DNA of 46,964 nucleotides. Origin: Welwitschia mirabilis. Lineage: Eukaryota. Where the stretch lies: assembly GCA_051453625.1 (NCBI GenBank), contig JBOZIK010000001.1, forward strand, positions 24,139,572 to 24,186,535. The letters are read 5' to 3'. Below the pieces are notes generated by a model. That model saw only the letters and a list, made by a program, of their open reading frames with translations, was not told where the DNA came from and ran no database searches. Positions 5,721-46,964 of the stretch are shown here, in pieces (the stretch's first letter is position 1; every line of letters begins with the position of its first letter). The position numbers and the translations under genes are program-made.

Positions 5721-6765
5721 ATGGCTAAAAACTTGTTCAGAAGGAGAATGAAGAAAGCTTCTTTAAGGGATCCTGCTATTTTCTACCAAGGAATATTTGA
5801 GGAAGACATAGAGAAGTTATCAGAAAAGTTTGAGAAGAAACCGGTGTGCTAGGAGCATTCTGTAGCAAAATCAGAGCTTAGAGAGCTCAGGGAAGTCATT
5901 CAACTCCTGAGAAATTAAGATCTTAATTACTTTTTAGATGTTTCTGGATCTACTTATCCATTTCTCACTTGGATGTTTTATTGTAATGCTTCTTATGATC
6001 ATGACTCTAGAATCCTTAAAACCCTTATTTTGGGGAAGCAGCTGATAGCAACAATCAATCTCATTTCTGATATGACCGATCTTTGTAGGGATGACTATGA
6101 AGAGTTTTAGCCTCTTTGAGACACCATGGAAGATAAGCCTACTATTACTAGGGAGATCTGTGGTAAAGTGCACTCTTAGAAGCACACCTTTTCTAATTTA
6201 TTATTGACACCAAAGTATCTTTTTATTCACTTGATTTTTACTTATAACTTTTTATCTTTAGCTAGACATTGTGATGAAGCCTCCTACTATAGAGTCTATC
6301 TGATGTATTTAGTAGGGACTGAGCATTGTATTGATGCTCCTACTATTATACTAAAGAATATGCTCTCATAGCTAGAGTACCACAGGACTAGGAAATTACT
6401 CTACTCTATGCTTATCATAAGTTTGTTCCACCATTTTTGTATTACTTTTCATCTAAAACTGGAGACCCTTCAGCCTCTGGCACCTTGGGCATGAAACCTT
6501 ATCCTGTATGCATAGTTTTTCCCCCTCTAAAAAATCCTCAAAGTCTTCTTCTCCAAAGGAAGCCTCTCCTAATGAAACCCTTTCATATCTGAGATAGATT
6601 GATTCCCATATTAGACACATGAAGGAAGCACTCATAGCGACTAGTTATGATATTTTTGACACCTCAGCAGAGGCCACTAGCCTAGAACACATAGAAGATA
6701 ACAAAGAAGATTCAAAGGAAGACTCTGAAGAAGAAGAATAAGAAGAGGATAAGGAGTCTGATTAA
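5721..6765 (+). pseudogene. Sirevirus env-like ORF, copy 1 (putative plant transposon protein / Transposase_32-like), disrupted
   Basis: ATGGCT at 5721. YPFLTWMFYCNA, LILGKQL, IDAPTIILKN and LLYSMLI motifs, then an acidic tail ending TAA at 6763-6765. Lies between pol and the PPTs. Confidence 0.75.
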
Positions 6766-6820
6766 AATTTTCAAATTATGTTTTTCTTTACATTTGTATT
6801 CTCTCCTTTATCATTGATCT

Positions 6821-7343
6821 CAAAAGGGGGAGAATTAGTTGTTTATTGTTAGATGTTTTGTATATGCTTTCAAATGTATGCTCTTGATAAGAACTTTTTT
6901 ACTTTGTAATGTTTGCTTATATTCAATGAAATGCACTTATCTATTTTGCACAAAATTATGTTTCAATTGGTATCTTAAATCTTTTTGTTCTTTTACAAAT
7001 CATATATGCGTAACATGCTTATCTATTGGTATCATATGTGCTTAACTTGAAAAGTTTAAAGTCTTCTAACATTAGAAATAAATTCTAATATGTGACATCT
7101 AATTAAAATGTTAAATGATTCACATGATCACATTATGTTTATCATAAAGTTATGCCTTTAACCTTTCAAATGTGCATATTAAAATTTGTTCTATTTTAAG
7201 CACAAAATTTAATTGTTTAAAATGTCTTAACTTGTTTCAAAAGGAGTATTATTTTGTAGTAGGAATTTTTTAAGGGGGAGCTTTTCTAAGTTCTAATTTT
7301 TCACGACTAAGTATTGTTTGCCATCAATGTCAAAGGGGGAGAT
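6821..7343 (+). promoter_or_regulatory. Multiple polypurine tracts of Sirevirus B
   Basis: CAAAAGGGGGAGA (6821), TAAGGGGGAG (7271) and CAAAGGGGGAGAT (7331-7343), the last abutting the LTR TG. Confidence 0.88.
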
Positions 7344-7498
7344 TGTTAGATTATGTTTTTCCAATTGATGTCAAACTAATGTTTTCTATATAACAAATNN
7401 NNNNNNNNNNNNNNNNNNNNNNNNNNNNNNNNNNNNNNNNNNNNNNNNNNNNNNNNNNNNNNNNNNNNNNNNNNNNNNNNNNNNNNNNNNNNNNNNNN

Positions 7499-8579
7499 CC
7501 AATGTGCTAGGAGCGGTCTGTAGCAATTGCAGAGCTTAGAGAGCTCAAGGAAGTCATTCAACTCCTGAAAATTTAGGATCTTGATCACTTTTTAGATGTT
7601 TCTGGCTTTGCTTATCCATTTCTCACTCGGATGTTTTATTGTAATGCTTCTTATGATCATCACTCCAGAACCCTTGAAACCCTTTTCTTGGGAAAGCAGC
7701 TAAGAGTAACAGCCAATCTCATTTCTGAGCTGACGAATCTTCCTCAGGTGACTATGAAGAGTGTTGGCCTCTTCAAGACACNNNNNNNNNNNNNNNNNNN
7801 NNNNNNNNNNNNNNNNNNNNNNNNNNNNNNNNNNNNNNNNNNNNNNNNNNNNNNNNNNNNNNNNNNNNNNNNNNNNNNNNNTCTCATTTCTGAGCTGACT
7901 AATCTTCCTAAGGTGACTATGAAGAGTTTTGGCCTCTTCAAGACACCATGGAAGACAAGCCTGTCATTACCAGAGAGATCTGTGGTAAGGTGCACTCTTG
8001 AAAACACACCCTTTCTACTTCATTGTTGACACCAAAGTATCATTTTCTTCACTTGATTTTTACTTATAACTTCTTACCTTTAGTTGGACATCGTAATGAG
8101 GCCTCCTGCTATAGAGCCTATCTGATGTATTTGGCAGAGACTGAGCATTCTATTGATGTTCCTGCCATTATACTAAAGAATATAGTCTCACAATTAGAGT
8201 ACCACAGGACTAAGGCATTACCCTACTCTATGCTTATCACAAGTTTGTGTCGCCATTTTCGTGTTACTTTCATCCGAAACTGGAGACCCTCCAGCCTATG
8301 ACACCCATTGGACGTGCAACCTTATCCCATATGCACATTTTTGCCCCCTCTAAGAAATCCTCAAAGTATCTCTCTCCAAAGGAAGCCTCTCCTAATGAGA
8401 CCCTTTCATATCTTAGACGGATTGATTCTCGCACCAGACACATGAAGGAAGCACTCATAGCAGCTGGTTATGATATTGCTGATACCTCAGCAAAGGCCAC
8501 TAGCTCAGCACGCACAAGAGGTTATGAAGATGATTCAGAAGAAGCCTCTGAAGACAAAGAAGAGGAGGAGTCTTATTAA
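7499..8579 (+). pseudogene. Sirevirus env-like ORF, copy 2 (5' end in gap, better preserved)
   Basis: Colinear with 5841-6765. LTPKYHFLHLIFTYNFLPLVGHRNEASCYRAYLMY...SIDVPAIILKNI...ALPYSMLITSLCRHF, then acidic tail EDDSEEASEDKEEEESY. Confidence 0.78.
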
Positions 8580-9155
8580 AATTTTCAAATTATGCTTTGC
8601 TTTGTGTTTGTATTCTCTCCTTTGTCACTGATGTCAAAAGGAGGAGAATTAGTTGTTTATTGTCAGATGTTTTTCATATGCTTTCAGATGTATGCTCTTG
8701 ATGAGCACTTATACTTTGTAATGTTTGCTTATGTTTAATGAAATGCATTTATCTATTTTGCACAAAATTGTGTTTCAATTGGTATCTCAAATCTTTTTGT
8801 GCTTTTACAAATCATATATGCATAACATGCTTATCTATTGGTATCATATGTACTTCACTTGAAAAGTTTAAAGTCTTCTAACATTGGAAATAAATTCTAA
8901 TATGTGACATCTGATTAAAATGTTAAATGATTTAAATGATCACATTATGTTTATCATAAAGTTGTGCCTTTAACCTTTCAAATGTGGATATTAAAATTTG
9001 TTCCATTTCAAGCACAAAATTTGATTGTTTAAAATATCGTAACTTGTTTCAAAAGGAGTATTATTTTGTAATAGACATTTTATAAGGGAGAGCTTTTCTA
9101 AGTTCTAATTTTTCACAACTAAGTATTGTTTGCCATCAATGTCAAACGAGAAGAT

Positions 9156-9967
9156 TGTTAAATTATGTTTTGCCAATTGATGTCAAACTAATGTTTTCTG
9201 TATAGCAAATTTTGTGTTTCTTGTACAGAAGATGTTAATTACTTGCAGGTTGAAAGCTAAATCCAAAACCACTGAATTTTGAGCACTAGAAACCTGTCAG
9301 TTCTTTTACCCTCTTGAGGGGTCGACCAGACTTTCAAGGGGTCAAACGCACCTGAAGCAGACAGACAAAATGAACTGCATCCAGAGTGGTCGACCGGATT
9401 TATGATGAGGTTGACCAAACCTGTAGCCCTAAGAACCTGAGTTCCTGAACCGAATGGAAAGGGTTCGACGGGATCCTTATAAGGTCGACCGGATTTGAGG
9501 ACCTGATAAACAATACTCCTGAACTGATTGTGAAGGGGTCGACTGGACCTATGATAGGGTCGACCGGACCTGAGCACTGTACAGCTGATGTTTCTAAGTC
9601 GATCGTCCTAGGGTCGACCAGACCTGATGCTAGAAACTGGAAAGAATTTTATCAGGATGAGCGCGCGACCAGATCATGTAGTGTGCGACCGGACTAGGGT
9701 CGACTGGACCCAGATGGGGTCGACCGGACATGGAGCTGTAAGACATGGGGGCAACCAAAATTCTCACTCGGGCGACCTGCGTAAGTCACGGCACCAGATA
9801 GGGTCGACCGGACTTTTAAGGGGTCGACCAAATGGAGCAAAAGTAAAATTTTCTAGTTGTAATGTATCCGTTGTGTACCCGTTGGGTAGCTGTTTTCTAA
9901 CCGTTTATAGCCGTTGGAAGCGCATTTCAAATGTAATAAACCCTAAAAATTTTACAATATAAATAGC
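9156..9967 (+). repeat. 3' LTR (U3 part only) of the second Sirevirus copy, truncated just after the TATA box
   Basis: Aligns with 1671-2478 from TGTTAAATTATG to TATAAATAGC, then homology stops. Preceded by a decayed PPT (AAACGAGAAGAT). Confidence 0.9.
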
Positions 9968-12390
9968 AATTAGTTGAGAATGATATGATTAGGAGAATTC
10001 TTAAACTTAAAGATGTAAGNNNNNNNNNCATGTGAAGACTATACTAAATGTGAACAAGCTAGAATCTCCTTTCAAAAAGTACAAAACGAGATGAGAGATT
10101 AACTCATTCTTGTTCACAGAGATATTTGAGGCTCCATTAGAACATCTTATCTAAACAAAAATATGCATTTTATCGCATTCATTGATGATTCTACCCAGTT
10201 TACCCATGGGTTCTTTATGGAATTTAAGTCACAAGGCCTACATTATTTTATGTTATACATACATTTTATTGAAAATGAGATAGGTTGTAAAATCAAAATA
10301 CTTAGAAGTGATAAAGGAGTAGAGTATATGTCATATGAATTTCATTCTTATCCTACAGATTGTGGGGTTAAACATCAAACAACAAGTTACACCCCACAAC
10401 AAAATGGGGTGGCTGAAAAGAAAAAAAGAACCTTGATAGACATGGCTAGAACCATAATACATGGTGCAAATATGACATACAACTTTTGGGCTGAAGCTAT
10501 AAATACAGCCTACTTTACAAATAAGTCTTGAGACAAAGCATCTTGACAATGTCTCCCTATGAAGTTTGGTATAGAAAAACCCCACATCCTCTCCATGTGA
10601 GAATTTCTGGATCCACTAGTTATGTCAAAGATGTCAAACCAGCAAGAAACAAGTGGAATACCAAATCAATAGAGTGCATATAAGTTGGATATTCATCCAC
10701 TAGTAAAGGCCATAGATGTTATGATATCCAAGAGAAGAAAGTGGTTGAGAGTATTAGTATTAAACTTCTTGAATGAGCATTTGTTGCCCCTTCAAGTCCC
10801 CATCCTATGATGAAGACGGAAAATATGTTCAAGTCCCTTGTGATGATGAGGATAAAACCCTCAGAAAATATTCAAAAAAAGTTGATGATGAAACCCATGC
10901 TGATAATAAAAAAGGATGATGATGAAATTGAAGGAGTTCCAAGACTAGATGAAGTGTTTGATATATCCCATTAATATAAGATGCCTTCCCATTTAAAGAG
11001 AGAAAGTGAGTATCATGATGGAAGTAATATTTTTGGCCCTATCTCCAAGAATATGGTACAGATTATGGGAAAACCTATGCCCCAATAGCCCGCCTTGAAT
11101 CTGTGAGAGCATTCCTTGCCTATGTACCTAAATCCCAAATGAAGGTATATCAAACAGATGTTAAATCAGCATTCTTGAATGGCAATCCAGATGCCGAGCT
11201 TTATGTGAAGCAACCCAATGGCTTTGTTGTGGAATGAAAAGAAGATTATGTGTACTTATTGAATATGAAAAATGTATGGCCTTAAACAAGCCCCTAAAAC
11301 ATGGTATTTAAGGTTGCATAAATATCTAAAACAGCAAGGATATGAAAAATGTGCAGCAGAAAACACCATGTGTAAGATCTCCAGGAAGTGTTAACTGTTG
11401 TTTGCCATGGTGTATGTTGATGATGTAATCTTTGCTAGTTCCTCACACATCATCATTAAAAATTTCAAGAGAGATACAATGAGTGAGTTTGAGATGACTA
11501 ATCTTGATGAGTTAACTTATTATCTTGGAATTGAGATAAAAGAAAGCCCAAAGGGCATTTTCTTGAATCAAGCAAAATATGTTCAAGATATGCCACATAA
11601 ATCTTCCATGCATAATGCTAGAGTTATAAGTACCCCTTTGCCTTCCCCTATAAAACCTTCAAGGAACATGAATGGTAAGGAAGTTGATGGTCACAATTTT
11701 AAATCCACAGGGGGAAGCTTGATGTACTGGACAGTTGCTAGAGCTGATATCCAATATGCAGTGAATCTGGTAGCAAGATTATCTCAAAACCACGTGCCCC
11801 TCATCTTCAAGCAGTCAAGAGAATTCTAAGATGTGTTAGAGATACACCACAACATAGATTATTTTATGAAGCCCGAAATGACTTTACCTTATGTGGATAT
11901 GTTGGTGCTGATTAGGGAGGGTCTCTTGATGATAGAAGAAGCACCACTAGCTATGCTATGTTGATAGGATACAGCCTTTTCTCTCAGTATAGCAAAAAAC
12001 AAACATGTGTGGTCCTAGCAAAAAACAAACATGTGTGGTCCTATCTACCGTGGAGGCTGAATGTATGGCAGCATACTTAGCCTCTCAACAAATAGTTTGG
12101 CTTGAAAATTTGTTTAATGAGTTCTTTATTCCCCTTCACAAGCCAATGACCCTTCAGAGTGATAGCATGTCTGCCATTGCTATCTCTAAAAATCCCATCA
12201 TGCATTTGGGAACAAATCATATTGATGTTAAGTATCATTACATAAGAGATTTAACTTGAGAAGGCTTAATATCAATCCAATTTTGTCCAACTCATATGCA
12301 ATTAGCCTTTTTTTCAACAAGGCCTTGCATACACAAAGATTTGTTCGATTAGGAGAGAAATTGCTCATTCTTGACATGTTAGTTAAGGGG
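9968..12390 (+). pseudogene. pol: Ty1/copia pol relic: pre-integrase, integrase, RT (N-terminal part deleted), RNaseH
   Basis: FIDDSTQFT, KIKILRSDKGVEY, YTPQQNGVAEKK, FWAEAINTA (IN); TYAPIARLESVR, DVKSAFLNG, YGLKQAPKTW, VYVDDVIF (RT); SKKQTCVVLSTVEAE, NPIMHLGTNHIDVKYHYIRD (RH). PPT-like TTAAGGGGAAG at ~12383-12393. Confidence 0.92.
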
Positions 12391-14454: not shown

Positions 14455-16200
14455 ATGAAGGATCCAATCACCACCTCCAAGTGATCTGCAAGATGTGTGA
14501 ATGTCTTCAGAAACATCCATGTCTACAAGGTTAGCCTCATTAGTTTGAGAGCTTGAGCCCTCCCCATTCTTCTACATCTCTTCCTTATATGCCTTCAATT
14601 TCCAACATTCCTTGACATGCCCCCTTTTGTAATAGTAGAAGCATACATTATCCCTTTTGTTGCTCTTTCTAGATCTTAACTTTGACTTGGGTGCTTTGTT
14701 TCCATATCCCCTCTCTATTATGCATCCTCTAATCATCAAGCTTTCCTCAGACAACTCTGTTACACTGGTTTTGATCGTTTTCTTTGACAAATGTGTTGTA
14801 GCCACTATCTCAAACTCTATGTTGTACTTTTCATAAAGTAACGTCCTAGGGAATGGCTTGTAGAATGGGGAAAGAGGTTTGAGAAGGATTAGGACTTGAT
14901 TCACCTCCCAAATGTCCACCTCACTACTAGATAGCTGGCAAATCAACTCCGTAAGAGAAATTGAGTGATCCATTGGGTGATCCACCATGTATGTCCCCTC
15001 CTTCATCTTGAATTATAGAGTTTCAACTTTAAGTACAACTTATTTCCTAGAGACTTGATCATGTACAAGCCCTCTAACTTTGTCTACAGTGCGATAGCAA
15101 AATTCTTCTTTGCCACATTAAGAAAAACTTGATCTGCAATACTCAACTAGATGGTGCTCTTAGCCCTTAGATCAAAATCATCCCATTCTTCATGAAACAT
15201 GGTTGAAGGCTTCTTCACTTTCCCTAACAAAGCCTATCGTGTACTTTTCATCTCAAACTGTATGGTGTACTTTTCATAAAGTAATGTCCTAGGAAATGGC
15301 TTGTAGAATGGTGAAAGAGGTTTGAGAAGGATTAGCACTTGATTCACCTCCCAAATCTCCACCTCACTGTTAGATAGCTGGCAAATCAACTCCGTAAGAG
15401 AAACTGAGTGATCAACCATGGACATCCACTCCTTCATCTTGAATTACAGAGCTTCAACTTTAAGTACAACTTATTTGCTAGAGACTTGGTCATGTACAAG
15501 CCCTCTAACTTTGTCTACAATGTGATAGCAAAATTCTCCTTTGCCACATTAAGCAAAACTTGATTTGCGATACTCAATTGGATGGTGCTCTTAGCCCTTA
15601 GATCAAAATCCTCCCATTCTTCATGAAACATGGTTGCAGGCTTCTTCACTTTCCCTAACAAAGCCTATGGTGTACTTTTCATCTCAAACTCTATGGTGTA
15701 CTTTTCATAAAGTAATGTCCAATGAAATGGCTTGTAGAATGGTGAAAGAAGTTTGAGAAGGATTAGGACTTGATTCACCTCCCAAATCTCCATCTCACTG
15801 CTGGATAGCTGGCAAATCAATTTCATAAGAGAATTTGAGTGATCAACCATGGGCGTCCCCTCCTTCATCTTGAATTATAGAGCTTCAACTTTAAGTGCAA
15901 CTTATTTGCTAGAGACTTGATCATGTACAAGCCCTCTAACTTTGTCTACAATGTGATAGCAAAATCCTCCTTTGCCACAATAAGCAAAACTTGATCTGCA
16001 ATACTCAACTGGATGGCGCTCTTAGCCCTTAGATTAAAATCCTCCCATTCTTCATGAAACATGGTTGAAGGCTTCTTCACTTTCCCCAACAAAGCCTTTG
16101 TAACCTTTGTTGAATGTCCAAGTCCTTGACTTTGATCTTGCACAGCCCAAAGTTATTTTTGTTGCCAACCTACTCTACCTCAAACTTTGTATTCTAAACC
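14455..16200 (-). pseudogene. gag: Copia (Tnt1/Tork-like) gag to the start of protease, with internal triplication
   Basis: EEWEDFNLRAKSAIQLSIADQVL, KLEGLYMIKSLANKL.LK.KL, MKEGT..DH, knuckle relic CFYYYKRGHVKECW. Ends at GGDWIL, the start of the protease WILDSG motif. Confidence 0.88.
14807..16097. repeat. Tandem triplication, 431 bp unit
   Basis: Units start at 14807, 15250 and 15681 (the first has a 12 bp insertion). ORF starts 15006, 15437 and 15868 are 431 bp apart. Confidence 0.93.
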
Positions 16201-24544: not shown

Positions 24545-27500
24545 CTACACCATGTAATAGGTATTCTAACTATCATTCAAACAATTTTTATCATAAATCT
24601 TCTCATTCTTATAACAAGAATCAATCTCAATGGCAATCTAAATCTTTACCTCTTCCTCCTTCACAAGAAAATAAATTAGAAGAAATAATGAAGTTGTTGG
24701 TTAATAAAATGGATGAAATGTAAAAAACTATTAATTTCATGTTCTAATGGTAAAATAAAAAGGAGATTCATCCTAGTTTATCTTTCTAATCTACTTTTAA
24801 TCTAAATCAACTAATGTGGTGGAAGAACACATTAATGCGAATGTCATTAGATTAAGAAGTGAAAGAATCATTTCATAACTTAGTTCTAAAACAAAAAAAA
24901 AAGTTGTAAATTTAGATAAAATAATTAAAAATATTAAATCTAATTCTAGGAAAAACTTTTAAAAGATAAAATTAGAAGATTTTGTTCCTTTTCTTAGTTA
25001 TGTTCAATCTAATAAAGGCTTTAATAACTATAGTGATATTCATAAAATTTTTAAAGATGTTAACATTAATATTACCCTTCTTAAGGTAATTAAGTAAATT
25101 CCTTCTTATGCTATGTTTTTTAAAGACCTATGCACTCGCAAAAGAAAGTTCTAACCTTCGAGAGAAATAATTAATCTTATTACATTTACTACTTGCGTTT
25201 TAGAATTAAAAATACCTATGAAATATGGTAACTCTGGACCCCCCCACTATCTCTATTACTATTGGTGGTCATATTATTAATAAAGCCTTATTAGATTTAG
25301 GAGCTAGAGTCGATCTTATGTTATAACTTGTTTTCATTCCTTAGGATTTAACCATGGTGATCCTACTGATGTAATTCTTTCTATGGCTGAGGGAACCTTG
25401 GTTAAAACCTCTAGAATTTTACAAGATGTATTAATTCAAATTAATAAAGTAGTTTATCCTGTTAACTTGATCATTTTTAAGGTTCCCATGAATTCCACTA
25501 TTTATCCTATTATTCTTATTAGACCTTAACTTTCTATAGCAAATGTGGAAATTAATTGTAGATCTAGTACACTAAAAATTATCTTTGACAATCTTTTCAT
25601 TAGCTTAAATGTGTTTTCTAATTGGAAGAAAAAGGCTATTGAAGTAAATGAACATTTACCTGTGCTTAAAATTCAACCTATAAGTGATGATTTATTTTAA
25701 ATTTTGAATGATATGCTTTATTTGGATGCTAATTATGAATTGCTTGTTACACCTTATTCAGATTTAAATGAATTTGATAATACTATTAAATATGTTTATT
25801 TTGAAGACTTTAATTATGTTTTTAAAGAAATAAAAATGAATGTTTCTTTAAATGATGTTTTTGTAGATAATAGTATTGCTAATGATAACTCAAAAACCTC
25901 TACTTGATCATTTAAAGTACATCTTTTTACCTATTATCATTAGTGCTCATCTTACTCCTTTTTAAGAAAAAGAGCTTACTAATTTTTTACTTGAACATTC
26001 TATATCTTTTACTTGGTCTTATAATAATTTGATTGGTATTCATCCTTCTGTTTGTTCTCATCCTATTTATTTAAAGCCTAATATCAAACTTGTTTGTCAA
26101 TCACAGTGTAAGCTAAATCCCATGCTTAAGGACATTGTTAAAGAATAAATCATCAAACTTTGGAAAGTTGATATTATTTACTCCATTATAGATATTAAAG
26201 GAATTAGTCCCTTATAAATTTCCCAAAGAAGAATGGTAAATGGCAAATTTATATAGATTTTCATGCTCTTAATAATCATACTAAGAAATATAATTTTCCT
26301 ATTTCTTTTATTGATTTAATTCTTAATAAACTTTTTGGCCATCATTACTATTGTTTTTTGGATGGACATAATGATTATAACCAAATTCCTATAGCTCCCA
26401 AATATGAAGAAAGGACTAATTTTACTTGTTTATTTGGATCTTTTGCATAATGTCACATGCTTTTTGTCTTATGTAATGCTCTTGTAACTTTTCAAAGGTG
26501 TATGAATGGTTTTTTTGCTAAATTTATAAATCAACTTTTAGAAATCTTTATAGATGGTTTTTATCTTTATGGTGATTATTTTGATCAAATAACGTATCAT
26601 TTGAAGTTAATCTTAAATCATTGTATTAATCATAATCTTTAGATTAGTTGGGGAAAAAAGTCATTTCATCATTACTAGAGGCATTATTCTTCATCATATT
26701 ATTTCTAAAGAAGGAATAGAAGTAGATCCTGCTAAGATTGATATCATTTGTTCTCTTCCTACTTCTACTTATGTTAAAGATATAAGATCTTTCTTAGGAC
26801 ATGCTGGTTTCTATTGATGTCTTATTCCATTTTTTAGTTCTCTTAGTAAACCTTTGTCTAAATTACTTTTGAAAGATGCATCTTTTTATTGGACACCAGA
26901 GTGTGAACTTGCATTTCAAAAGCTTAAAGATTTTTTATCATCTTTACCTATTCTTTAATCTCCTAATTGACCTTGTCCTTTTGAAGTTATGACTGATGCA
27001 AGTGATTTCACAATAGGCGTGCTTTTAGGTTAGACTCTTAAGGATAAACCCTTTATCCTTTCCTATGCTAGTAAGACCTTGCATGATTCTCAACTTAAGT
27101 ATCTATGCTAGTAAGACCTTACATGATTTTCAACTTAAGTATTCCACTATTGAAAATGAGATGTTAGTTATTATCTTTACTCTTGAAAAATTATGCAACT
27201 ATTTTATTGGTTATCCTATAGTTATTTTTATTGATCATGTTGCTTTGAAATACATTCTAAATAGGACCCTAAGTAAACCTCATCTTATGCATTGGGCTTT
27301 ACTTATGCAAAGATTTGATATTACAATTAAAGATAGATTAGGAAATGAAAATCTAATTGTCAATCATTTATCTCATCTTTCTGTGCATACTGATTCATCT
27401 GAAATTAAGAAAATTTTCCTGATGAAAATTTATTTGTTGTTAATGTTTTACCTTAGTATGCTAACATTGCAAATTTTAAATTCTATGGTAAGATTCCTAA

Positions 27501-28738
27501 TAACATGTCTTATTATTATCAAAAGAAAATTCTATCTCAACAACATAAATTTCCTTGGAAATCAACTCTTGTATTTAAATATTATGCTGATCAAGTCCTT
27601 TGAAGATGTGTACCTGAGAATGACATGATTAGTATACTAGAATTTTGTCGCAATGGTATTTGTGGTGGTCATTTTAGTGAAAAGAAAACTACATTTGAGG
27701 TTTTAAAAGTTAACGTTTTTTAGCCTACCCTTTTTAAAGATGCTAATGAATTTTATAAATCATGTGATAAATGCCAAAGAATGGGTAGTATTAATAAGAG
27801 AAATGAAATGCCTCTTGAACCTATCATTGTTTGTAAACCTTCTAATGTTTGGATTATTGATATCGTTGGATCATTTACCCCCTCCTTTGATAATGTTATA
27901 TTCTTGTTTATGTGGATCATGTTTCTAAATGGGTAAAAGCCAAAGCTTGTAAATATTGTGATGCTATGACTATCACTAGATTTTGGAAATATTATGTTAT
28001 TTCTCATTTTGATCATCCTAAAGTAATCACTAGTGATCAAGGAACACATTTTTGTAATAAAATATTTAGAAATCTTATGTTAAAATATGACACTACCAAT
28101 ATAAGGTAGCTACTACATATCATCCTTAAGCTAATGGTTAAGCTGAAGTAACTAATCATGAGCTTATTAGAATTTTTTAAAAAATAGTTAGTGCTAATAT
28201 AAAAAATTGGTTACTAAAACTGTCTAATGCATTATGAGCTTATGATATTGCTTTTAAAACTCCCATTTGCATGACTTCTTTCAAACTTGTTTATGATAAA
28301 TAATATTTTCTTCCTGTTAAGATAGAGTATCAAGCTTTTAATGCTATTTGTAAACTTAATCTTGATTTTGAAAAATGTGCTAAACATAATCAATCAAATG
28401 AATTAGATGAAATAAGATTAAGTGATTATAATAATTAAGTTCTTGCTAAAAAATTAATGAAATATTATTGTGATCAGATCATTCTTAAGAAAACATTTCA
28501 TGTATGTAATAAAGTTTTACTTTTTAAATCTCATTTTCATTTATTTCTTAGTAAGTTCAAATCTAAATGGAAAGGTTCTTTTGTTGTTATTCATGTATTT
28601 TCTTTTAAAACTATTGATATTCAAGATCCTATAACTAGTCATGTTCAATGTATAAATAGATCTAACCTTAAGTTATTTAATGATAAAAATTTAAATGGGG
28701 TTGAGATCTATTTTGATTCATCTTTTTTATATAATTAA
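24545..28738 (+). pseudogene. pol: Athila-like gypsy element D gag(C-term)-pol relic
   Basis: NVIRLRSE; IPSYAMFFKDLCTRKRK; PR KALLDLGARVDLM (~25280-25320); RT YCFLDGHNDYNQIPIAP, LCNALVTFQRCM, EIFIDGF; RH FEVMTDASDFTIG, YSTIENEML; IN CGGHFS, CDKCQR, ITSDQGTHFCN; C-terminal KFKSKWKGSFVV. Confidence 0.92.
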
Positions 28739-36800: not shown

Positions 36801-37819
36801 ATTTTTACATGCTACAATATATGAAAATATTAAAAAAAAAATAAAGACATACTTGCATACATCCTTGCTAAGTTATCATAATGGGAAAGTTAATACATCC
36901 TAAAGTTGGGTTCTCAAGTTCAAACCCTCATAATGGTAAAGGGAAGTTGTAGTTAAATCCATACATTAGTGGGATTTTATTGACATGCATAGGCCCAAGT
37001 GTTGTTGGGTATAATGTAGTACAAAAGCTAACTTACCTCCTTATATACTCTAAGAAAAATAAAAAAAAGAAAAAAAATATTTGTACTTACTAGTATTAGT
37101 ACAATAACTTCTATGGTCTTAATATCTTCTTCCTTCGTTAGTTTTTATTTTGACTTTTACCTTGTTAACGTAAAACCCTAAATTATGATTGGACATAAAA
37201 AGGAACAATTAACTATTATAATAAAAATGAAAAAAATTCTTACCTAAATGATTATTTAGTGTTATACCTATGGCACTATCCTTTTTGAATTTACATCCTT
37301 ATTCATAAATAACTATTGGGATGCTAATATAATTTTGATATCATATTTGGTTTCATTTAGTACCCTTGATAATGATAATGTTTTAATCATAGAAACTCTT
37401 TTTAGACTTATTTATTTATCTATTCTCTATATATTAATTCACAGATCCAAATGTAGAATTGTCAAATAATGGTAGAGGTTGATGACAATAATCTGCCCTT
37501 CTTCCTTTAAGATCTTGAATTTAATTTCAATAGAGTAAGACTGGTACATACTATTAATCCAAATCCATTACAATATCATTAGATAAGAATTCTATCTATC
37601 TTACAAGAAGATCAGATATTGTACTAAGATTTAAAAATAAAACAAAATAGCATGTTGGAAAAATATCATTATCAAAAGAACAAAATGTTCTAATAGATAA
37701 TCACAATGTTGACTCATCTCAGAAAGATAAAGTTTTAAAAATAGATGATAATATAAATGATAATATAGAAATAAAATTATAAAATATACTCTAAATGAAC
37801 AGACATATGTTCACCTAAT

Positions 37820-38690
37820 ACACCAAGGACATTCTTGAGATGATAAGAAAGTCATAACTCATAACATAGTCATCAAAATAGATTACATTCTAATAAAATA
37901 AAAGGTCTAAAAACTTAACCCAAAAATTGCACTCATTATTAAGAAAGATTTTAATAACTCTTAATGGCCAAATTTATTTGATCTATACATTGATCTGATT
38001 GGATCTCGAAATTTGTTTTTATCATTAAAAAAATGGAGCAATTAGGATTTGTATAAATTGTAATAATCTAAATAAAGTAACATTTAAAGATGATTTTATT
38101 TTACCAAATATTAATGACTTGATTAATAAAACTACTAAATATGATCAATTTCATGGATAGCTATTCAAGATATAACCAAATTTTCATAAGGATAGAAGAT
38201 CAACATAAGACAACATTCATAGCCTCTTAGGTCTATTCCATTAAGTAATCATGCCTTCATGCTTTGAAAAATGTTGGTGCAATGTATTAACATACAATGA
38301 TCTATATATTTCATAGTTCCATTTATAAGATAATTTAATATTATATTAATAATATTAGTTGTAAAATCTTCCTAGGCTTAAGATCATTTTCACCATATAT
38401 AAGAGCTATTCTAAGCAGCAATAAAATTTGATCTCAGATTAAATCAAAGACATGTATTTTTAGAGTGTCATCAAGAGAATTAATAGGATTCATTATATCA
38501 AAAATAGAAATTAAAGTAGGTACAAAAAATCTAAAAGGAATTATGGAAATGCCATCACCTAAAAACATTTTTAAACTATCCTTTCTAATTGATAAGTACA
38601 TCTCATTTCTTTACTTATTTAAAAAAAAAGTAAAATTTGAATGGGATGAAAAATTGCAATAAATATTTGACCAAATTAAAAAATATATTT
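37820..38690 (+). pseudogene. pol: Very old Ty3/gypsy RT relic (Tat/Ogre-like)
   Basis: SDWISKFVFIIKKNGAIRICINCNNLNKVTFKDDFILPNINDLI; MDSYSRYNQI..RIEDQHKTTF; LKNVGAMY; IGFIISKIEIKV..K.KGIMEMPSPKN; KKVKFEWDE. Confidence 0.8.
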
Positions 38691-41600
38691 TATTAGAACT
38701 GAATATCCTTAAGTTAATAGAATAGCTATGGTAAATTTTTAATTTTGAAAGTTTAACCTAATTGGCACACTTTAATATCTAATGAAATGAAGGAATTACA
38801 CTATGCAATTTAATCTATTAGATATATAAAAATACATATAATTGTAATGTAGAGTAAAGATCATAATAAAATCATACTAAAGATAGAAAATAAGATTTTT
38901 TTCCCTTTATTAATCAGTAAAGCCTCCATAACACTCTACTGAGACTTTATGGTAGTCCTTCACTTTCAATAGGATTCTACGATAATGTGTAGCCTTTATG
39001 AAATCTTAAAATATTTCAATTATAAAGTGAAATTGTATAAATATTGAAGATAAAGGAGAGAGATAAGGTACAAAGTGTGAAGTTTACAGTTTAGGCCTAA
39101 TGATCAATGATGAAAAAGTTCTTTCTTAGTACAATAGTATTTTGATTTATACTTGATAGATGCTAGCTATTGTTGATTAGTTTTCTAAGAAGTATGACTA
39201 TTACAAATGTTAAAATAGTTATTTAGCCTTTCAAGACATTAGGAAATAAGTCATAAGTAATCTTAAATGGATAAATATAGTGATAGCTAAGTGCATGGTA
39301 GTTAACCACTTGATAGGATTCTATTAACCCCTTAGCTAGTTGACTCACATTTATAGATGGTCAACATATAGTTGAAATAGTCTTCAATTTAAGATGTTCA
39401 AGTGATCAATCCTTAGGATTTTTAGTCAATCATTCAATAATTAATTTACTTTGGGTTATAGTTAATAGTTAGCCCTAATTGAATTTGGATAACTGTAAGA
39501 TGATTTCTTTAGATTTTTGTGTATTATCTAGTTGATCTTCAAGAAAAATCTAATCAACCTATCATTAGTTTATTTCAAATTTTATGTTTTTCAATCTAGC
39601 TTTTCATCTTAGTTGATCTTCTAGTAATTTTCTCTTGTGCTTGGTTAAATTTGATCTTTATGTCTTAAAGTAGCTAACCTATATTTAAATCATCAATATT
39701 TTACTAATGACTTGATTTCTCATTAATAGATAATTAAGAGGTAAAACAATATCCTTCTTTATCATGGATAACAACCAAGTATTCTTTATTGCTCCCTCTT
39801 GATCTATGATCCTCTTAAGCTAGTGCATCTCATATAAGAATGTGTCAAACACATAGTACGATTGAATTTCTAATTAAAGATAGACATTATATAATGAAAT
39901 TTTATGGCTTTATGGTATATAGTGATAAATATTTTGCTAAAAAAGAAGCAAGAAATAATTTTTTTAGAAACTAATATATTTTCAAAAAAATGAAAGTCTA
40001 GGTAAATGTAAAATATTTTATTAAATTTTAATATCATATCTACTGCATGATATAGGCTGTGAGCACATTAAGGAGATAGTGAAAATTCACACTAGTTTTA
40101 AATACGCCTTATGTTACATATTATCATAGAAATTATAATTATTAAAAATCACATTGAATTATAAGCATTATGCATGGAAAAAGTATTATTTTTTATAATT
40201 TTTGTTAAAGACACATTAGTACAATAGTTGTTATGCTAAATAAAGTAAAAATAACAATAAAAAACTGTTGGTTTCTCTTCCTCTTTATCATCAATGAAAA
40301 CGATGGAGGTGCATAATAAAGATACTAAAGAAAAGCAATAAAGAAAAAGAAGCACATAATGTTTTTATAAGCATGTAATAACTAAGTTACTAAAGATGGT
40401 TGTAGCCTATCTATGTGTAATGTCTAAGGAATGGAAAGAGTGCTAGATTTGGAATGATAGTAAAAGTAGTGCAATGGACCCCATAAAGCTCTTTCTAGAG
40501 GGGTCAACTTACACTATGATAATGATGCCAGACAAGTATGCAGCATTGGCAGTGTCTCCTCTAACTTCTCTATTTTTACAACTAACTTCTCACCTAAGTT
40601 GTCTTTAGACTTAGCTTTCTCCTCTTCTTATTCCTTACACTATACCTCCTCTTTTTCTTCTGTCTCCTCTATCTCTTCCTCCTTTAGTTCTATTTACTCC
40701 TCTTTTTTTTTTTACCTTTGTAGAAGACCCTATATATTATAATAGAGTAGTGTACTCAAAACTCTCTAAATAAATAAGTTCATGAAATCAGTGCACATCC
40801 ACTTCACTCTTATGAATAGCCTACATAATTTTTCTCAATAAAGTGAATGAGGCATTATTAGATTTAGCATTGCTTATAAATCTATATAGATATAAATTAT
40901 AGCATGTTAGCTACTAGGTGAGTGTCACATTGAGAGCGAGTTGTATACTATTGTAGCCTTGGATGAGTAGAAGGATGTGTCTTTCTAATAGGCCTTGGTA
41001 CTAGTTTAGCCTTAAAGAGATGCATACATACTAAAGTGAAAAAGTTCAAAGGCTTTAATGAATTTAAAATACTAATATTATGTTGTTGAAAAGGTACCTT
41101 AAGTTTCTTGTATATGGTCATAATTAAACCTTCATAACATAACCCTTTGTTCTTATACTATAACATATGCACCATGAAGTTGACTATCAACTTAAAAGCA
41201 AATCAAAGCATGGGTAGTATAAGTTAAATGTTCATTTTTACATACTTTGAAGGAATTTTTTAGATGTTTTATTTAGATTTAGTGGAATAATTTAATTAGA
41301 TAATGTTATAATTAGACTTATGATGGGTGATGTTAATCTAAAAGTAGGATTTGAATTAAAGTAAAGAACCTAATTCATACTTGAATTGATAACGAGCTTA
41401 TATTTTGAGTAGAATATGGTAAGAAAGTATATTAGTCAATCCTAGTGTTTTATGTTGTATTAATATTTGACATATTATAGAAAATTTCATACTTATAATT
41501 GTACATCCTTTGTTTACAACTTGTACATTATTACTACATATCATTATTCAAATGAACTAATAATACACATGTGGTTGGCATAGCCATTGAAGTCATGTTT

Positions 41601-43861
41601 CCTTAATTTTTGAATGTTTTCTTCTTGATTGTAGATTATGTAAGAAGCGAATATTAGTGGGCTATCATGTTTAAGACCTATTTATTAGAGCTAGGTATTT
41701 ACCATATTGATGTGAGCATTTTAAAAGTTTTTTTTTTTAGCTACATTAGTATTTGATAGTTGTCCTAAGTAACTACATTCACTAGGTTTTCTTCATTTCT
41801 TTATAAAAAATGAGATAGTTTTTTTTGTGGATAGGAATTATTTTTTCATAAGGGATTGGTGCATTAAAAGATTTGAAATCTTTAACCATTCCTACAGGAT
41901 TGAAATAGTAACTTTTAATTTCTCTATGCATATTTCTGGAAGAGGTTCACAAGTATAAATAAACTAAAATAAAATGAATTTCAACCAATTCTTAGTTAGT
42001 TAGACATATCTTCCTAGGATTTAAAATTATCTAATTATGACAAGTATCTAATTATCTAAATTCAAAAGACATCCTAGTTCTTCTAAAAAGAAAGGGTAAT
42101 TGGAAAATATAGTTGGATCTTTTATTTAAAGTTTATCAAATTATTGATTTTGATTATATTCAATACTAATTTCCTCTCTATATTCTAATGATTAAGGTTT
42201 TAATTCAATTGAGAGTCAAGGATATTATCTTGGAATTATCTTATTATTCAAATTTTACTTGTTATGGACTTATAAATTTAGTTGTGATAGCTTTCTTTAG
42301 AGGCTATAACTATGAATGGTTCGTATCTTTAACTAAGATTTCTTCCCTTATCATCTAGGATTGAGAAGTTATAACATAGAAAGAATGTATCTTTTTTCCA
42401 CAAAGGTTATTTACTAGGTTTTTCTTGATATTTTATCATGTAATTAGTATTTTATGTAAATAATTAAAATTCATGTAGTGGAGATCTTAATATATATCTA
42501 GAATAATGATAATCCCATTCATAATAAAATAAATTACAAAAGAACTTTTACTTTTGATTCCAAATCAATTCTTATTAAATTTGTAGTTTATCTTGGGAAT
42601 AATAAGTTTAACAACCTTTTCTAAAAATAAATTAAGTACCTTTGATATAATTCAAAAATGATTTAGATAATTACCTATATATTGATGTACAATGAAGTGT
42701 AATTTGCTTCTAATAATCATTCTATGTATCTAACTTTTTACAATACTTCAAATATTCTTACTCTTGTACCTCTTAGAACAAAGAATAAATGAATATTATT
42801 GTAAGTTTTTATTTTATCAAAAAGGAATAGTCATTAAAAGAACTAATACTAATAATGAAAAAAATTTAAAAGCAAAAAATAATGAGAAATAAATTTGTAT
42901 AAAATAAAGTAGAAGGAAAATGCAATAAATAATTTTCAAAAAAACAATGAAATAACTTGAAAAATAAAGCTTAAAATAAAAGAAAAGAATTCCAAGAATT
43001 TGAAAGAAATTAATAAAACAAATAAAGGTAAATAACTCAACCTATTCCAAAATTTTAGATCACTAATATTCCTTAATAATCATGCTACAAAGTGATGATG
43101 TTGATGAAACAATAGCCAATCTAATTAAAAATATATCTATCTTATCTATGAAGACTATCAGATTGTGATTTAAAATAACCTAGGAAAAAAATTAAGTAAA
43201 TTACATGTAACCCTAAGTTTTTTTTAAAAAAAGTTAAATAATGAAAGCTATTGAAATGATAATAAAATTTTGTTATGAAATAAAAAACAAAAGGTACAAA
43301 TTAATTCAATTCTAATATAGACATAAAAAGAAAATTAAATAATATTGATTTCATAATGTTAATAGTTTACCATTATATTAATGATGTATTTAAGTACAAG
43401 ATATCAATGAGGTATGTATTCATTAGTTATACTAATGAAATTATGAATGGATGACATATCATAAGATAAGAAATAAATAATAATTAATTCACTAATAAAA
43501 TCATGCATCAAATACATTAACTACATAGGACATTAATATGAAATGTAAAATGAAAATAGAAATTTGTGGAAACAAAGTGAAATTAACTCCTATACTTTAA
43601 ATAGTACTCTTAAATTCAAATAAAATTTACACAAAATTATAGAAAATTAAAACTAAAAATAAAAAATCATAAACAACTAATTATCACACCTAACTCAAGC
43701 ATAATCTAGTAAGATTTTAATAAAGAAAAACTTAAATGTAGAACATATAATAAAACAAAATGGAACGTTCAAGGGAAATAAATTAAATTCAAGATTTCTT
43801 GTAAAGAACATAAAAGTGTAAGAATGATTTAAAAGACGTTTCCAAGTGAAATTAATTACCA

Positions 43862-45041
43862 AACTCCACTCTGATACTCTTCAAAGGATGCCTAACCCTT
43901 TGGGACAAAATATAGGTACTGGGATGCGAAGCTCTATTAGACAAATTGAAGGGAAAGATCAAGGCCAATATCGCTGCATTTTACAGAAGGTGGAGAGGCC
44001 ATAGAACCACCTTTAAAAGAATCCTAATTGAAATCACAAAAGAATTGCTTGTCGACCTATTAGAAATACTTGCAAAAGGGGTGAGGATTCCTCTCAAGTG
44101 CTAAGGACAAAGGCAATCTCTCCATTCTTTCTCAGGAGGCATTTCTAAGCTGTCAAGTGGACATATAAGTAGAAAAGTACTTCCACTGCCATGGGTTTTA
44201 GGTGCAGAACTGGCACATAGATACTTCATCCAGTTATAATGCTGCTTGAAGCTATTGAGTCTACATTTCATCTTTCTCAAGGCCTTAGACCTAGGGCACA
44301 AGGTTAATTTACCTCACTTCATTCTCTAGACACTTAAAAAAAAGGATATGATGAAGCATTTAGGCCTCATTATTGCCTTGTGGAGAGCCATGTAAGATAT
44401 AGAGGTAAAAGAGATTCCTTCCCCTTTCCCTCGGCTAAGGGCATCAATCAAGGCTTAGCAGATGAGGAGAAAAAGAAGAAGGCAGATAAGAATGATAACA
44501 ATCCTCAAAATAAGTGGGAAGATGAGTCAAGATGCTCCCAAACTCAAAGAGGGGTGACTCTTCCCCCACCCTAAGAGACTTAAGAACGAGAAGATCTAAT
44601 TTTACCCCCTAATGCAGTGTAGGTAGAGTAATCATAGTCTAAAAATGGCTAGGAGAAAACCCCTAATGAAGCACAGGAATAGGAGCAATTATAGACTAAA
44701 CAAGAGTAAGAGGAAGCCCCTCAGAAGGAGGCTAATAGCCCTAAATATAGCAAGGAGATAGAACCTCAAAATCATTAGAAATTCATTCAGAGAAATGAAA
44801 TCAAGCATCTCATGACAATATTGATATGAATCATATAAGAAGAGAAGTATTACTAGCTAAAATTCATGAGATGAAAAGGTGTTCCTTCTTGACCCTTGTC
44901 ATCTCACATAGATTTCGTCCGAATGCGATTAAATCAAGCTTTCGTAAGAAGGCGCTAAAAATTCACCCTGACAAGAATCAAGTAAGAGAAAAAGAGTTTA
45001 AAGTGATGAATCAGGCATTTAAGGTTCAGTGTATGAATTGA
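43862..45041 (+). pseudogene. Decayed ORF: plant-transposon-protein-like domain + E/Q/K-rich linker + C-terminal J-domain
   Basis: Reading through in-frame stops from 43862: LWDKI*VLGCEALLDKLKG...AAFYRRWRGHRTTFKRILIEITKELLVDLLEI.AKG...ISRKVLPLPW...HFIFLKALDLGHKVNLPHFIL*TL...KHLGLIIALW. Charged linker at 44460-44820. IKSSFRKKALKIHPDKNQVREKEFKVMNQAFKV with HPD at 44964-44972. Confidence 0.65.
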
Positions 45042-45310
45042 GACAATTCTTGTTATAGCATAACCCTAGCCACTTGTTCCCCAACTGGAGGGGATATTAG
45101 CTAATTTTTTTCTCATAGCTTAGATTAGTCCTTCTCTAGTCTATCACTTTTTTGCATCTCTTTTTCTATTTAGTGAATTCACATGATTACTTAGAAGGTT
45201 GGTTTTTTTTTTATCATAGTCGGGATTTCTCGTGATTCTTAACATAGGGGTGCTTTCACCCCCATTCTGTAACTACTTATTTTTTAATATAATGTATTTA
45301 TTTTTCAAAA
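45042..45310 (+). other. LINE-like 3' UTR/tail with terminal stem-loop
   Basis: GGGGTG-CTTT-CACCCC hairpin at 45247-45262, then TGTAA...TTTTTTAATATAATG...TTTTTCAAAA. The sequence returns to AT-rich background after 45310. Confidence 0.5.
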
Positions 45311-46565
45311 GATAAATAATTAAACTCTACTTTCCAATGGAAACTATCTTAATTTATAATAAGAGTTATGAGAGAATTTAAGGGAAACATACAAATGGAA
45401 TTAATGCCAAACTTAATAGAAAGGAGTAGAATATAGAGTAACGATTATTTTAGTACTAATTTGTGCATTTATCCTCTTGTAATCTTCTTGTAAACAACTA
45501 TTAATAATGATATTTCCAAGCTATAACATTGGATTAATATTGATTTCTTTATCACCAAATTATTACCACTTATTGAACATTACATCACTAAGTGATAAAG
45601 GTGCTTTCAACCAACTTTAACCCTAGATCATCCTTATCATCAAATAATAGAAGAAGATCATATAACGTAGCTATTTTCCATTTTCATTAGCTAATATGGC
45701 ATTTTATCACCAATCCTATTACATATGATAATCACTAACTCCATATTACTAGTGAGAACTCATTTATACCAAAAATAGTTCATTTTGGGTGATAAGTATA
45801 GTTGTTCCTTTATCATGTCCATGTAGCTTACTGATAACATAGTTATAACATTAAATACATATTATTAGCTTAACACTAGATAATAACATAACAAAAGTAA
45901 AAAAATAAGAAATGCTGAAAGAGTAAGAAAAATTTATTAAATAATAATTAAGAATATTTAGTTTTCTATTATTCTGAAAAGTATAAATGTTGTCTAATTA
46001 AAATATATTTCATGATTAAAGTAGGATAAAATTATCTATGAAATAATTAGTTTCATGATTGCATTGATGCCCATTTATAATGTATGTTTCCATTTCATCA
46101 ATATGTCCTCTTTCCACTACTTCATTATCTAATAATTTAATTATGTTAAAGGGTTCAATTTGTTTTGCACATATTTTTATTTACTATGCATATATTTGGA
46201 ATTAAATAGTAATATTTGGTTACTTCCTTAAATTCTATTTTTCCAATTTTCTACTCATGTCTTATTTTATTTTTATTTTTAGTTAATTATTTTTCTCATT
46301 AATGTTTTCTTTTTTTTTTGGTCTAGTTCATTTATGTTATGAGGCCTTCTTCCTAGGATTTATTTAATTTTTAATTTAGTGTCTTATCAAGTTTAAATGT
46401 TTTAATTTAGAGTGTTGTTAACATGTAAAAATCAACATTTATATCAAGTGCTTGAGGATAACTTATTGTAAATTAAGACATTAATTTAATTTTTTTAATC
46501 ATAAAATATGTCTTCTATTGTTTTTTTAAAGGAAATTAAATGTCATCTTTTTCTCAATATTAGAC

Positions 46566-46964
46566 TGTAGATAGTTAAGCCATTTTTGAAACACATGGTG
46601 GAAGATGGACTCAATTCTGCCTAAAACAACAGTGGCAAATGGAGACATTAGGTGGTGATATATAGTAGAAGAAATTAAAGACCCGTGGCAAAGGCATATG
46701 GAGGTGGCATTAGAAACATGTGGTGATAGCACTAGTTGGTAGAGGAATTTAGCTCCAATGGTCACATGATGGACTCATCATAATGAAGACTTTACCAAAT
46801 GCTACATGATGAAGACTCCACCAAACACTATCTAATGGCCTCCACCAAATCCTATAAGATAGAATCTTATGTACCTAATGCTAAATGATGAAGATTCTAC
46901 CTAATGCTATAAGCCAAAAGTTTTAACCATCCCTTACCTTCATCTCTCCCTATAAAGAGGCCTT
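46566..46964 (+). repeat. Possible start (U3) of another LTR running off the window
   Basis: Composition shifts at TGTAG (46566). Short degenerate repeats ATGAAGACT.TACC.AATGCTA (46782-46910) and CCCTATAAAGAGG at the window end. Confidence 0.4.

Follow-up and report, generated by a model that had tools for sequence, protein, structure and literature searches.

The window analysed here, a stretch of 46,964 nucleotides (nt) of Welwitschia mirabilis DNA (contig JBOZIK010000001.1, positions 24,139,572 to 24,186,535, forward strand), contains at 43860–45310 an island in which the decayed remains of an N-terminal helical domain, a purine-rich stretch and a short J-domain of the DnaJ type follow one another on the + strand. 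We consider it firm that both domains are genuine, that they belong to one repeated, colinear unit, and that the present copy is old and dead, with a decay of the methylation type. The sequence-only reading of the window had described the island as about 1.45 kb of higher guanine plus cytosine (GC) content in AT-rich DNA, and this is borne out by the base composition. The GC fraction rises from 0.195 (43600–43799) to 0.38–0.435 (43800–44799), is 0.345 at 44800–45199 and then falls to 0.27 or less, i.e. 0.345–0.435 inside the island as opposed to 0.165–0.30 in the flanks (0.165–0.23 upstream, 0.205–0.30 downstream). Between about 42800 and 45000 the + strand is rich in A (AT skew +0.1 to +0.36). 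No second copy of the island was found in the window, the longest other blastn match being 34 nt.

The open frame near the 3' end of the island shows a confident match to the Pfam family DnaJ (PF00226; E-value 1.7e-9, 38.1 bits compared to a cut-off of 27.8; residues 33–76 of the frame on profile positions 6–52 of 63), which persists inside a frame of 3155 aa (E-value 2.2e-7). DnaJ is the sole Pfam family detected in the three + frames of 37500–46964, and no Pfam family was detected in the three - frames of 43400–45700. The histidine-proline-aspartate (HPD) tripeptide is present within the sequence KIHPDKN, between helix II and helix III, and the pattern of helix I is recognisable when counted back from HPD. 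The search against sequences of solved structures returned 38 distinct matches with E-values up to 1, those listed being J-domain proteins, with C. elegans dnj-12 (8.7e-6) and human DNAJA1 (2.7e-5 and 4e-5) as the best relatives, and the alignments with dnj-12 and DNAJA1 are gapless from helix II via HPDKN to the end of helix III. When stops were counted in 2000 shuffled sequences, a frame without a stop over 80 codons was reached by 0.1% of the shuffles (P-value 0.001). Judged by the Pfam score above the cut-off, the intact HPD and the alignments with the structural relatives, the J-domain is genuine, and its sequence appears most similar to the class A DnaJ proteins; the earlier proposal of a compact J-domain ending at the stop at 45041 therefore stands. 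The AlphaFold2 (AF2) model of the J-domain piece, built from a single sequence (predicted local distance difference test, pLDDT, 70.4), gave 17 rows in a Foldseek search of the PDB at E-value 10 or less, with none at 0.001 or less and no J-domain among them; this null result is taken to reflect the weak single-sequence model and not as evidence against the J-domain. A word-indexed protein search with the same piece yielded 24 candidates in the wider setting, none of them significant, and no candidate in the near setting.

The upstream domain has exactly one detectable relative. The full HMMER pass over 1,835,955,588 representative proteins identified a single match at E-value 0.001 or less, P0001 (1.4e-16, 53% identity; query residues 5–82 on residues 14–91 of P0001), which is a 91-aa Trinity transcript ORF (open reading frame) of Welwitschia mirabilis from EukProt. 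It starts with a methionine located 13 residues ahead of the shared part and runs off its contig, and by the alignment its start codon maps near 43838, i.e. to the 5' edge of the GC island. On this sequence evidence the upstream domain is genuine, belongs to an unassigned family and is not part of a DnaJ gene; it appears to be a helical domain of about 190 aa, an intact version of which is transcribed in Welwitschia. The N-terminal domain of about 180 aa proposed earlier is thus confirmed as real by homology over some 80 residues, but its family is not in Pfam, as no family was found at E-value 10 or less with either the window copy or P0001. The same result, together with a null outcome of hhalign, leaves the suggested kinship with Transposase_32 (PF20167) without support. 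The sequence-only reading had also noted a likeness in motif order to env-like ORFs at 7631–8300, for which we found no statistical backing: tblastn of the N-terminal part gave no match in these ORFs at E-values up to 100, and the hhalign comparison with a better-preserved paralogue at 5916–6515 gave a probability of 0.15% (E-value 0.38), with only the region of the VNLPHFIL / IDAPTIILK motif aligned. This paralogue matches PF20167 (1.4e-6, 28.7 bits, profile positions 8–175 of 177), below the cut-off of 45. A look-up of P0001 with a protein language model (Atlas), which is a lead and not a test, gave scores of 0.88–0.91 to plant clusters, with PF20167 in 49% and 16% of the members of two of them and ATHILA ORF-1 in 87% of the members of one. 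A search with the two-row alignment of P0001 and the N-terminal part in the wider setting gave 1758 candidates, none at E-value 0.1 or less, a scan of metagenome contigs with this alignment gave 29 pattern matches, none of which was confirmed, and the AF2 model of P0001 with the two-row alignment was unusable (pLDDT 43.8).

Among the cases that would undo it, the sequence-only reading had named descent from an ordinary DnaJ gene as a processed pseudogene. This was rejected: the J-like part comprises only about 44 residues, the relative of the upstream part is a transcript ORF that does not encode a DnaJ protein, and the remainder matches nothing in Pfam.

The stretch between the two domains is the least clear part of the unit. 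The linker frame chosen in the sequence-only reading (44437–44820, frame of 43801) has 10 stops in 113 codons, compared to a shuffle mean of 7.6 (P-value of so few, 0.86); the frame of the N-terminal domain continued through the stretch (frame of 43802) has 4 stops, one of them TGA (P-value 0.11), and 16 stops fall in the third frame. The latter alone is excluded by a codon-position model that was trained on coding pieces of the window, the other two frames differing by 0.2 log units. One colinear ORF with about two frameshifts is therefore not demonstrated, since stops in the linker frame are not depleted relative to shuffled sequence and the codon model does not separate the two candidate frames. 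Coding continuity just upstream of the J-domain frame is favoured by position 44796, where the stop in front of this frame begins: the window has T there, and nine contigs of the public run X1 (described below) have G (depth 58.1/61.5).

All 16 internal stops in the two upstream frames of the sequence-only reading are TAA or TAG, with no TGA, a count that rests partly on the linker frame, which may be the wrong one; the CpG observed/expected ratio is 0.23. In the alignment with P0001, a Q stands opposite the TAG stop at 43913 and an R opposite the TAA stop at 44102, as expected if CAG and CGA codons decayed by C>T and G>A changes. The earlier view that the stops are consistent with C>T decay agrees with both observations, and we regard the methylation-type character of the decay as firm.

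Repetition was assessed with 11 public runs from three studies, none of them on record as RNA. The share of the sampled words contained in a run is 0.89 and 0.76 for two runs of organism A and 0.23–0.24 for four runs of organism B. For mapping on 42300–46900 at 80% likeness, contigs were taken from X1 (organism A) and from X3, X4 and X9 (organism B); the resulting depth profile is subject to the same bias between coding and non-coding DNA as the GC island. In X1 the summed contig depth, a rough sum and not a copy number, is 66–419 over 43994–45225, with the peak at 44148–44301; outside the island it is 9.3 at 43070–43223 and 15–17 at 45534–45841, it is down to the flank level by about 45530, and single X1 contigs have 3.6–6.6. 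These figures point to tens of copies. At 44961, 30 X1 contigs have C, which changes Ile to Leu directly before HPD. Pieces from other loci, about 80–81% identical to the window, chain by overlap over 43964–44373 and 44470–45135 (the listed ones being 43964–44163, 44128–44373, 44470–44715, 44592–44908, 44651–44890, 44786–45025 and 44837–45135); the segment 44374–44469 is covered by none of them, and in X3, X4 and X9 there are contigs that bypass it by running directly from 44234 into 44626. Since the pieces with the J-domain reach into the sequence ahead of it and into the 3' region (the last one, about 81% identical, covers part of the latter), they are copies of the family and not host DnaJ genes. 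The repeated nature of the stretch, including the J-domain region and part of the 3' region, was thus confirmed by tens of pieces of about 80% identity.

Contigs of organism B bridge both edges of the island, one at 42300–44006 (22 differences, 31 gap letters) and one at 44270–46444 (72 differences, 5 gaps, about 96.7% identical to the window), from which it follows that the insertion predates the split of organisms A and B. The island is an old, fixed and dead copy of a moderately repeated, colinear family, a conclusion that we regard as firm. The segment 44148–44301 in the N-terminal part has the highest depth in all four runs (419–616 in X1, X3 and X4; 238 in X9) and may be common to a more abundant related family; the contigs of the locus itself break between 44006 and 44270. 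The layout of the unit is given in Table 1.

Table 1. Layout of the J-domain unit on the + strand of the window
Feature	Position	Strand	Basis or remarks
N-terminal domain frame (frame of 43802)	43865–44458	+	198 codons, 6 TAA/TAG stops
Homology to Welwitschia transcript ORF P0001	~43877–44110 (residues 5–82)	+	HMMER, alignment
Purine-rich low-complexity stretch ('linker')	44459–44798	+	E/Q/K/P-rich in frame 43801, R/K-rich in frame 43802
Open 80-codon frame with J-domain	44799–45041	+	Pfam match 44895–45026; stop TGA 45039–45041
HPD tripeptide codons CAC CCT GAC	44964–44972	+	read from sequence, Pfam match
Non-coding 3' region	45042–45310	+	at least 45042–45135 common to other copies
Hairpin GGGGTG-CTTT-CACCCC	45247–45262	+	6-bp G+C-rich stem

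No marks of mobility were found at the ends of the unit. The 3' stem-loop of the sequence-only reading is present as a short G+C-rich hairpin, but the fold of the 279-nt 3' region as a whole is not unusual (z-score -1.57, with 13 of 200 shuffled sequences reaching an equally good fold). Between the flanks, the best direct repeat is an exact 13-mer at 43340–43352 and 45535–45547, bracketing a span of 2.2 kb that includes the island; by our own estimate about 0.08 such repeats are expected by chance, and this one may stem either from chance or from the target-site duplication of a larger unit. The Rfam search of 42000–46964 gave two matches, both far under the gathering scores, and Tandem Repeats Finder (TRF) found two small arrays, both outside the island.

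We see about an even chance that the island stems from a family of mobile-element accessory or chimeric ORFs that captured a class-A-like J-domain; the element was probably a retroelement, and the family is so far known only from the Welwitschia-like (gnetophyte) lineage. The ancestral unit would have comprised, in one orientation, the N-terminal helical domain, the purine-rich stretch and a short J-domain (helices I–III with HPD), the last picked up from a host DnaJ mRNA, and methylation-driven C>T decay would then have left the copies AT-rich, with TAA and TAG stops. One ancestral ORF joining the two domains is plausible from the sequence. Provided that both domains once formed a single chain, the C-terminal J-domain would have docked host Hsp70 and triggered its ATPase beside the binding target of the N-terminal domain. 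We infer the single ORF, the capture from a host gene, the spread by way of RNA and the recruitment of Hsp70, the latter from the domain as such. A weak pointer to an accessory ORF of a retroelement is given by the Atlas scores of P0001 together with the presence of PF20167 in the 3' accessory ORF of Athila, as described in the relevant part of PMC11728184.

Several observations weigh against this interpretation. In the frame of the sequence-only reading, stops are as frequent in the linker as in shuffled sequence, so that fusion into one protein is unproven. No full-length homologue is present in the protein collections, and P0001 ends after 91 residues. Helix IV of the J-domain is absent, as the frame stops five codons past helix III. 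A poly(A) run is missing from the 3' edge, and the downstream copy of the 13-mer does not follow an A-rich tract; none of the 38 inverted pairs, all AT-rich, lies at the island edges as terminal inverted repeats (TIRs) would, and no direct repeat of at least 80 nt that could represent a pair of long terminal repeats (LTRs) involves the region 30–47 kb. The GC island coincides with the reading frames and may thus mark coding versus non-coding DNA rather than the limits of an insertion, and the depth figures are sums by nature.

Within the mobile-element interpretation, two special cases can be distinguished in principle, which the present data do not separate. The first of them, possible but tentative, is an internal fragment of an LTR retrotransposon, i.e. 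an Athila/Tat-type 3' accessory ORF between pol and the 3' LTR of an element that was perhaps non-autonomous. The Atlas leads from P0001 to the Transposase_32 and ATHILA ORF-1 clusters, and the position of PF20167 in Athila (PMC11728184, in the part cited above), agree with it, as does the commonness of non-autonomous LTR elements in Welwitschia according to a passage of the genome paper (PMC8275611). The window itself holds a PF20167-like ORF (5916–6515) between direct repeats at 1666–2478 and 9151–9967, which are 83% identical and could be the LTRs of a non-autonomous element. On the same strand as the island, 3.5 kb upstream of it, lies a heavily decayed Ty3/gypsy pol (about 37950–40300), in which motifs of reverse transcriptase, the ribonuclease H (RNase H) linker and integrase were recognised by eye only. 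This pol, however, has many stops, is invisible to Pfam at E-value 1 or less in the three + frames of 37500–46964, and has a GC fraction of 0.24–0.26 as opposed to 0.39 in the ORF; as the ORF is still above the Pfam cut-off, the pol is probably older and unrelated. Moreover, neither an LTR pair nor a polypurine tract was found, and the flanks drop to single-copy depth. The abundant repeat that begins at 46416 was considered as the LTR of the J-domain family and rejected, being about 100 times deeper than the ORF and without a partner in the window.

The second special case, which we consider doubtful, is the one put forward in the sequence-only reading, namely a free-standing retroposon of about 1.45 kb, non-autonomous and truncated at its 5' end, whose 3' tail (hairpin and A-rich end) would be recognised and copied by a long interspersed nuclear element (LINE). 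Gnetophyte genomes are comparatively rich in LINEs. The unit resembles an mRNA, as the start of P0001 maps to the 5' edge of the GC island, no introns are obvious, the sense strand is A-rich and a 3' region of about 270 nt with a hairpin follows the frame; the stretch is, in addition, repeated. The proposed LINE-like retroposon end was nevertheless not substantiated: there is neither poly(A) nor a target-site duplication adjoining an A-rich end, the 3' fold is not significant, and the tail has no match elsewhere in the window.

Two further explanations are less likely than either of these cases. The island and its relatives might be pseudogenes of a lineage-specific host J-protein gene family with a novel N-terminal domain, spread by duplication or as processed copies, which would fit the expressed intact N-terminal ORF in the Welwitschia transcriptome and the missing hallmarks of transposition. 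We judge this unlikely, since tens of dispersed pieces of about 80% identity lie in heavily decayed DNA rich in transposable elements (TEs), no homologue from other plants was found among 1.84 billion proteins, and the feature-based leads point to transposon proteins. A DNA transposon of the Helitron or Pack-MULE type with captured gene fragments is very improbable: such elements are the usual carriers of gene fragments in plants according to a section of the review PMC7264820, and the G+C-rich hairpin near the 3' edge of the island could be the 3' hairpin of a Helitron, but no CTRR motif follows the hairpin within about 20 nt, there are no TIRs, and both fragments are sense-oriented and apparently free of introns.

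The surroundings of the island are decayed, TE-rich DNA. The whole window is AT-rich (31% GC, CpG observed/expected 0.27) and contains assembly gaps and decayed retrotransposon pieces, among them a Copia-type integrase at 10130–10531 (Pfam rve, E-value 2.1e-5) and a Ty3/gypsy RNase H at 27029–27628 (Pfam, E-value 8.6e-16). This composition agrees with the portion of the Welwitschia genome paper (PMC8275611) that gives a GC content of 28.8% for TEs, with 29.0% for incomplete as opposed to 35.8% for intact LTR elements, and reports prolonged deamination of methylated cytosine. The env-like ORFs near 7.6 kb sit inside a duplicated unit (5845–7398 and 7503–9210, 86–87% identical), and a coiled-coil ORF is located at 4184–4630, within the same bracketed region. 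An overlapping tandem duplication (14807–15669 and 15250–16100, 90–92% identical) adjoins an ORF on the - strand (14572–15012), for which no Pfam match was found at E-value 0.01 or less. Downstream of the decayed pol, a pyrimidine-rich low-complexity tract at 40560–40760 (GC skew -0.51, S/F/L-rich translation) lies in a locally GC-richer patch. The repeat at 46416–46964, which continues past the end of the window, is extremely abundant, with a summed contig depth of at least 10^4 in all four runs. Hundreds of contigs diverge immediately before 46416, where the repeat opens with TG, and it contains short internal repeats (46780–46804 and 46885–46909). A sensitive search of the window with 46300–46964 identified only AT-rich noise of 58–65% identity.

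Comparison with known systems helps to place the unit. From helix I through the basic helix II and HPD to helix III, its J-domain can be aligned gaplessly with class A J-domain proteins such as DNAJA1 and dnj-12. These proteins carry the J-domain at the N-terminus, whereas in the island it is at the C-terminal end of the frame, which lacks helix IV, the glycine/phenylalanine-rich (G/F) region, the zinc finger and the client-binding domains and is preceded by unrelated sequence. With the Athila 3' accessory ORF (PF20167) and ATHILA ORF-1 (PF03078) the unit shares the character of a lineage-specific helical protein in repeated, methylated DNA; it differs from Athila-type accessory ORFs in that neither a Pfam or profile-profile match of this kind nor LTRs or a pol of comparable age were found. 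As in the gene fragments captured by Bs1 (a chimeric retrocopy), Pack-MULEs and Helitrons, a host-like domain is found in a repeated unit together with unrelated sequence, but what was captured in the island amounts to a nearly complete functional module, retained at the end of the frame. The literature searched, which comprised articles without their supplements, yielded no report of a plant TE whose ORF encodes a J-domain, and the term 'DnaJ' does not occur in the review PMC7264820.

The polyomavirus T antigens are viral proteins with a J-domain of their own at the N-terminus. By analogy, the unit may follow the same concept, a selfish element carrying a minimal J-domain for use with host Hsp70, with a function here that is suggested by the domain; the J-domain of the island is, unlike that of the T antigens, C-terminal, and the carrier of the latter is a virus. 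The boldest form of our interpretation, which we rate as a long shot, is that a gnetophyte-specific mobile element encodes, or once encoded, its own Hsp70 co-chaperone, in which the N-terminal domain would bind a component of the element or of the host and the minimal C-terminal J-domain would recruit Hsp70. Such recruitment could serve the assembly or uncoating of particles of the element. Or perhaps it could disturb host silencing? According to the part of PMC8616336 that describes the SILENZIO-MBD5/6 pathway, plants possess a J-domain- and HSP70-dependent silencing that reads DNA methylation, and it is this pathway with which the co-chaperone might interfere.

The island copy is a dead relic in which the architecture is partly shown, and its present value is that of a lead for whole-genome work. 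If the co-chaperone interpretation is true, the family would provide a transposon counterpart of the J-domain of the polyomavirus T antigens. If an intact member that joins both domains exists, a chaperone-recruiting module would be added to the repertoire of transposon accessory proteins, and a connection that can be tested would emerge between mobile elements and the Hsp70/J-protein machinery of methylation-dependent silencing in plants.

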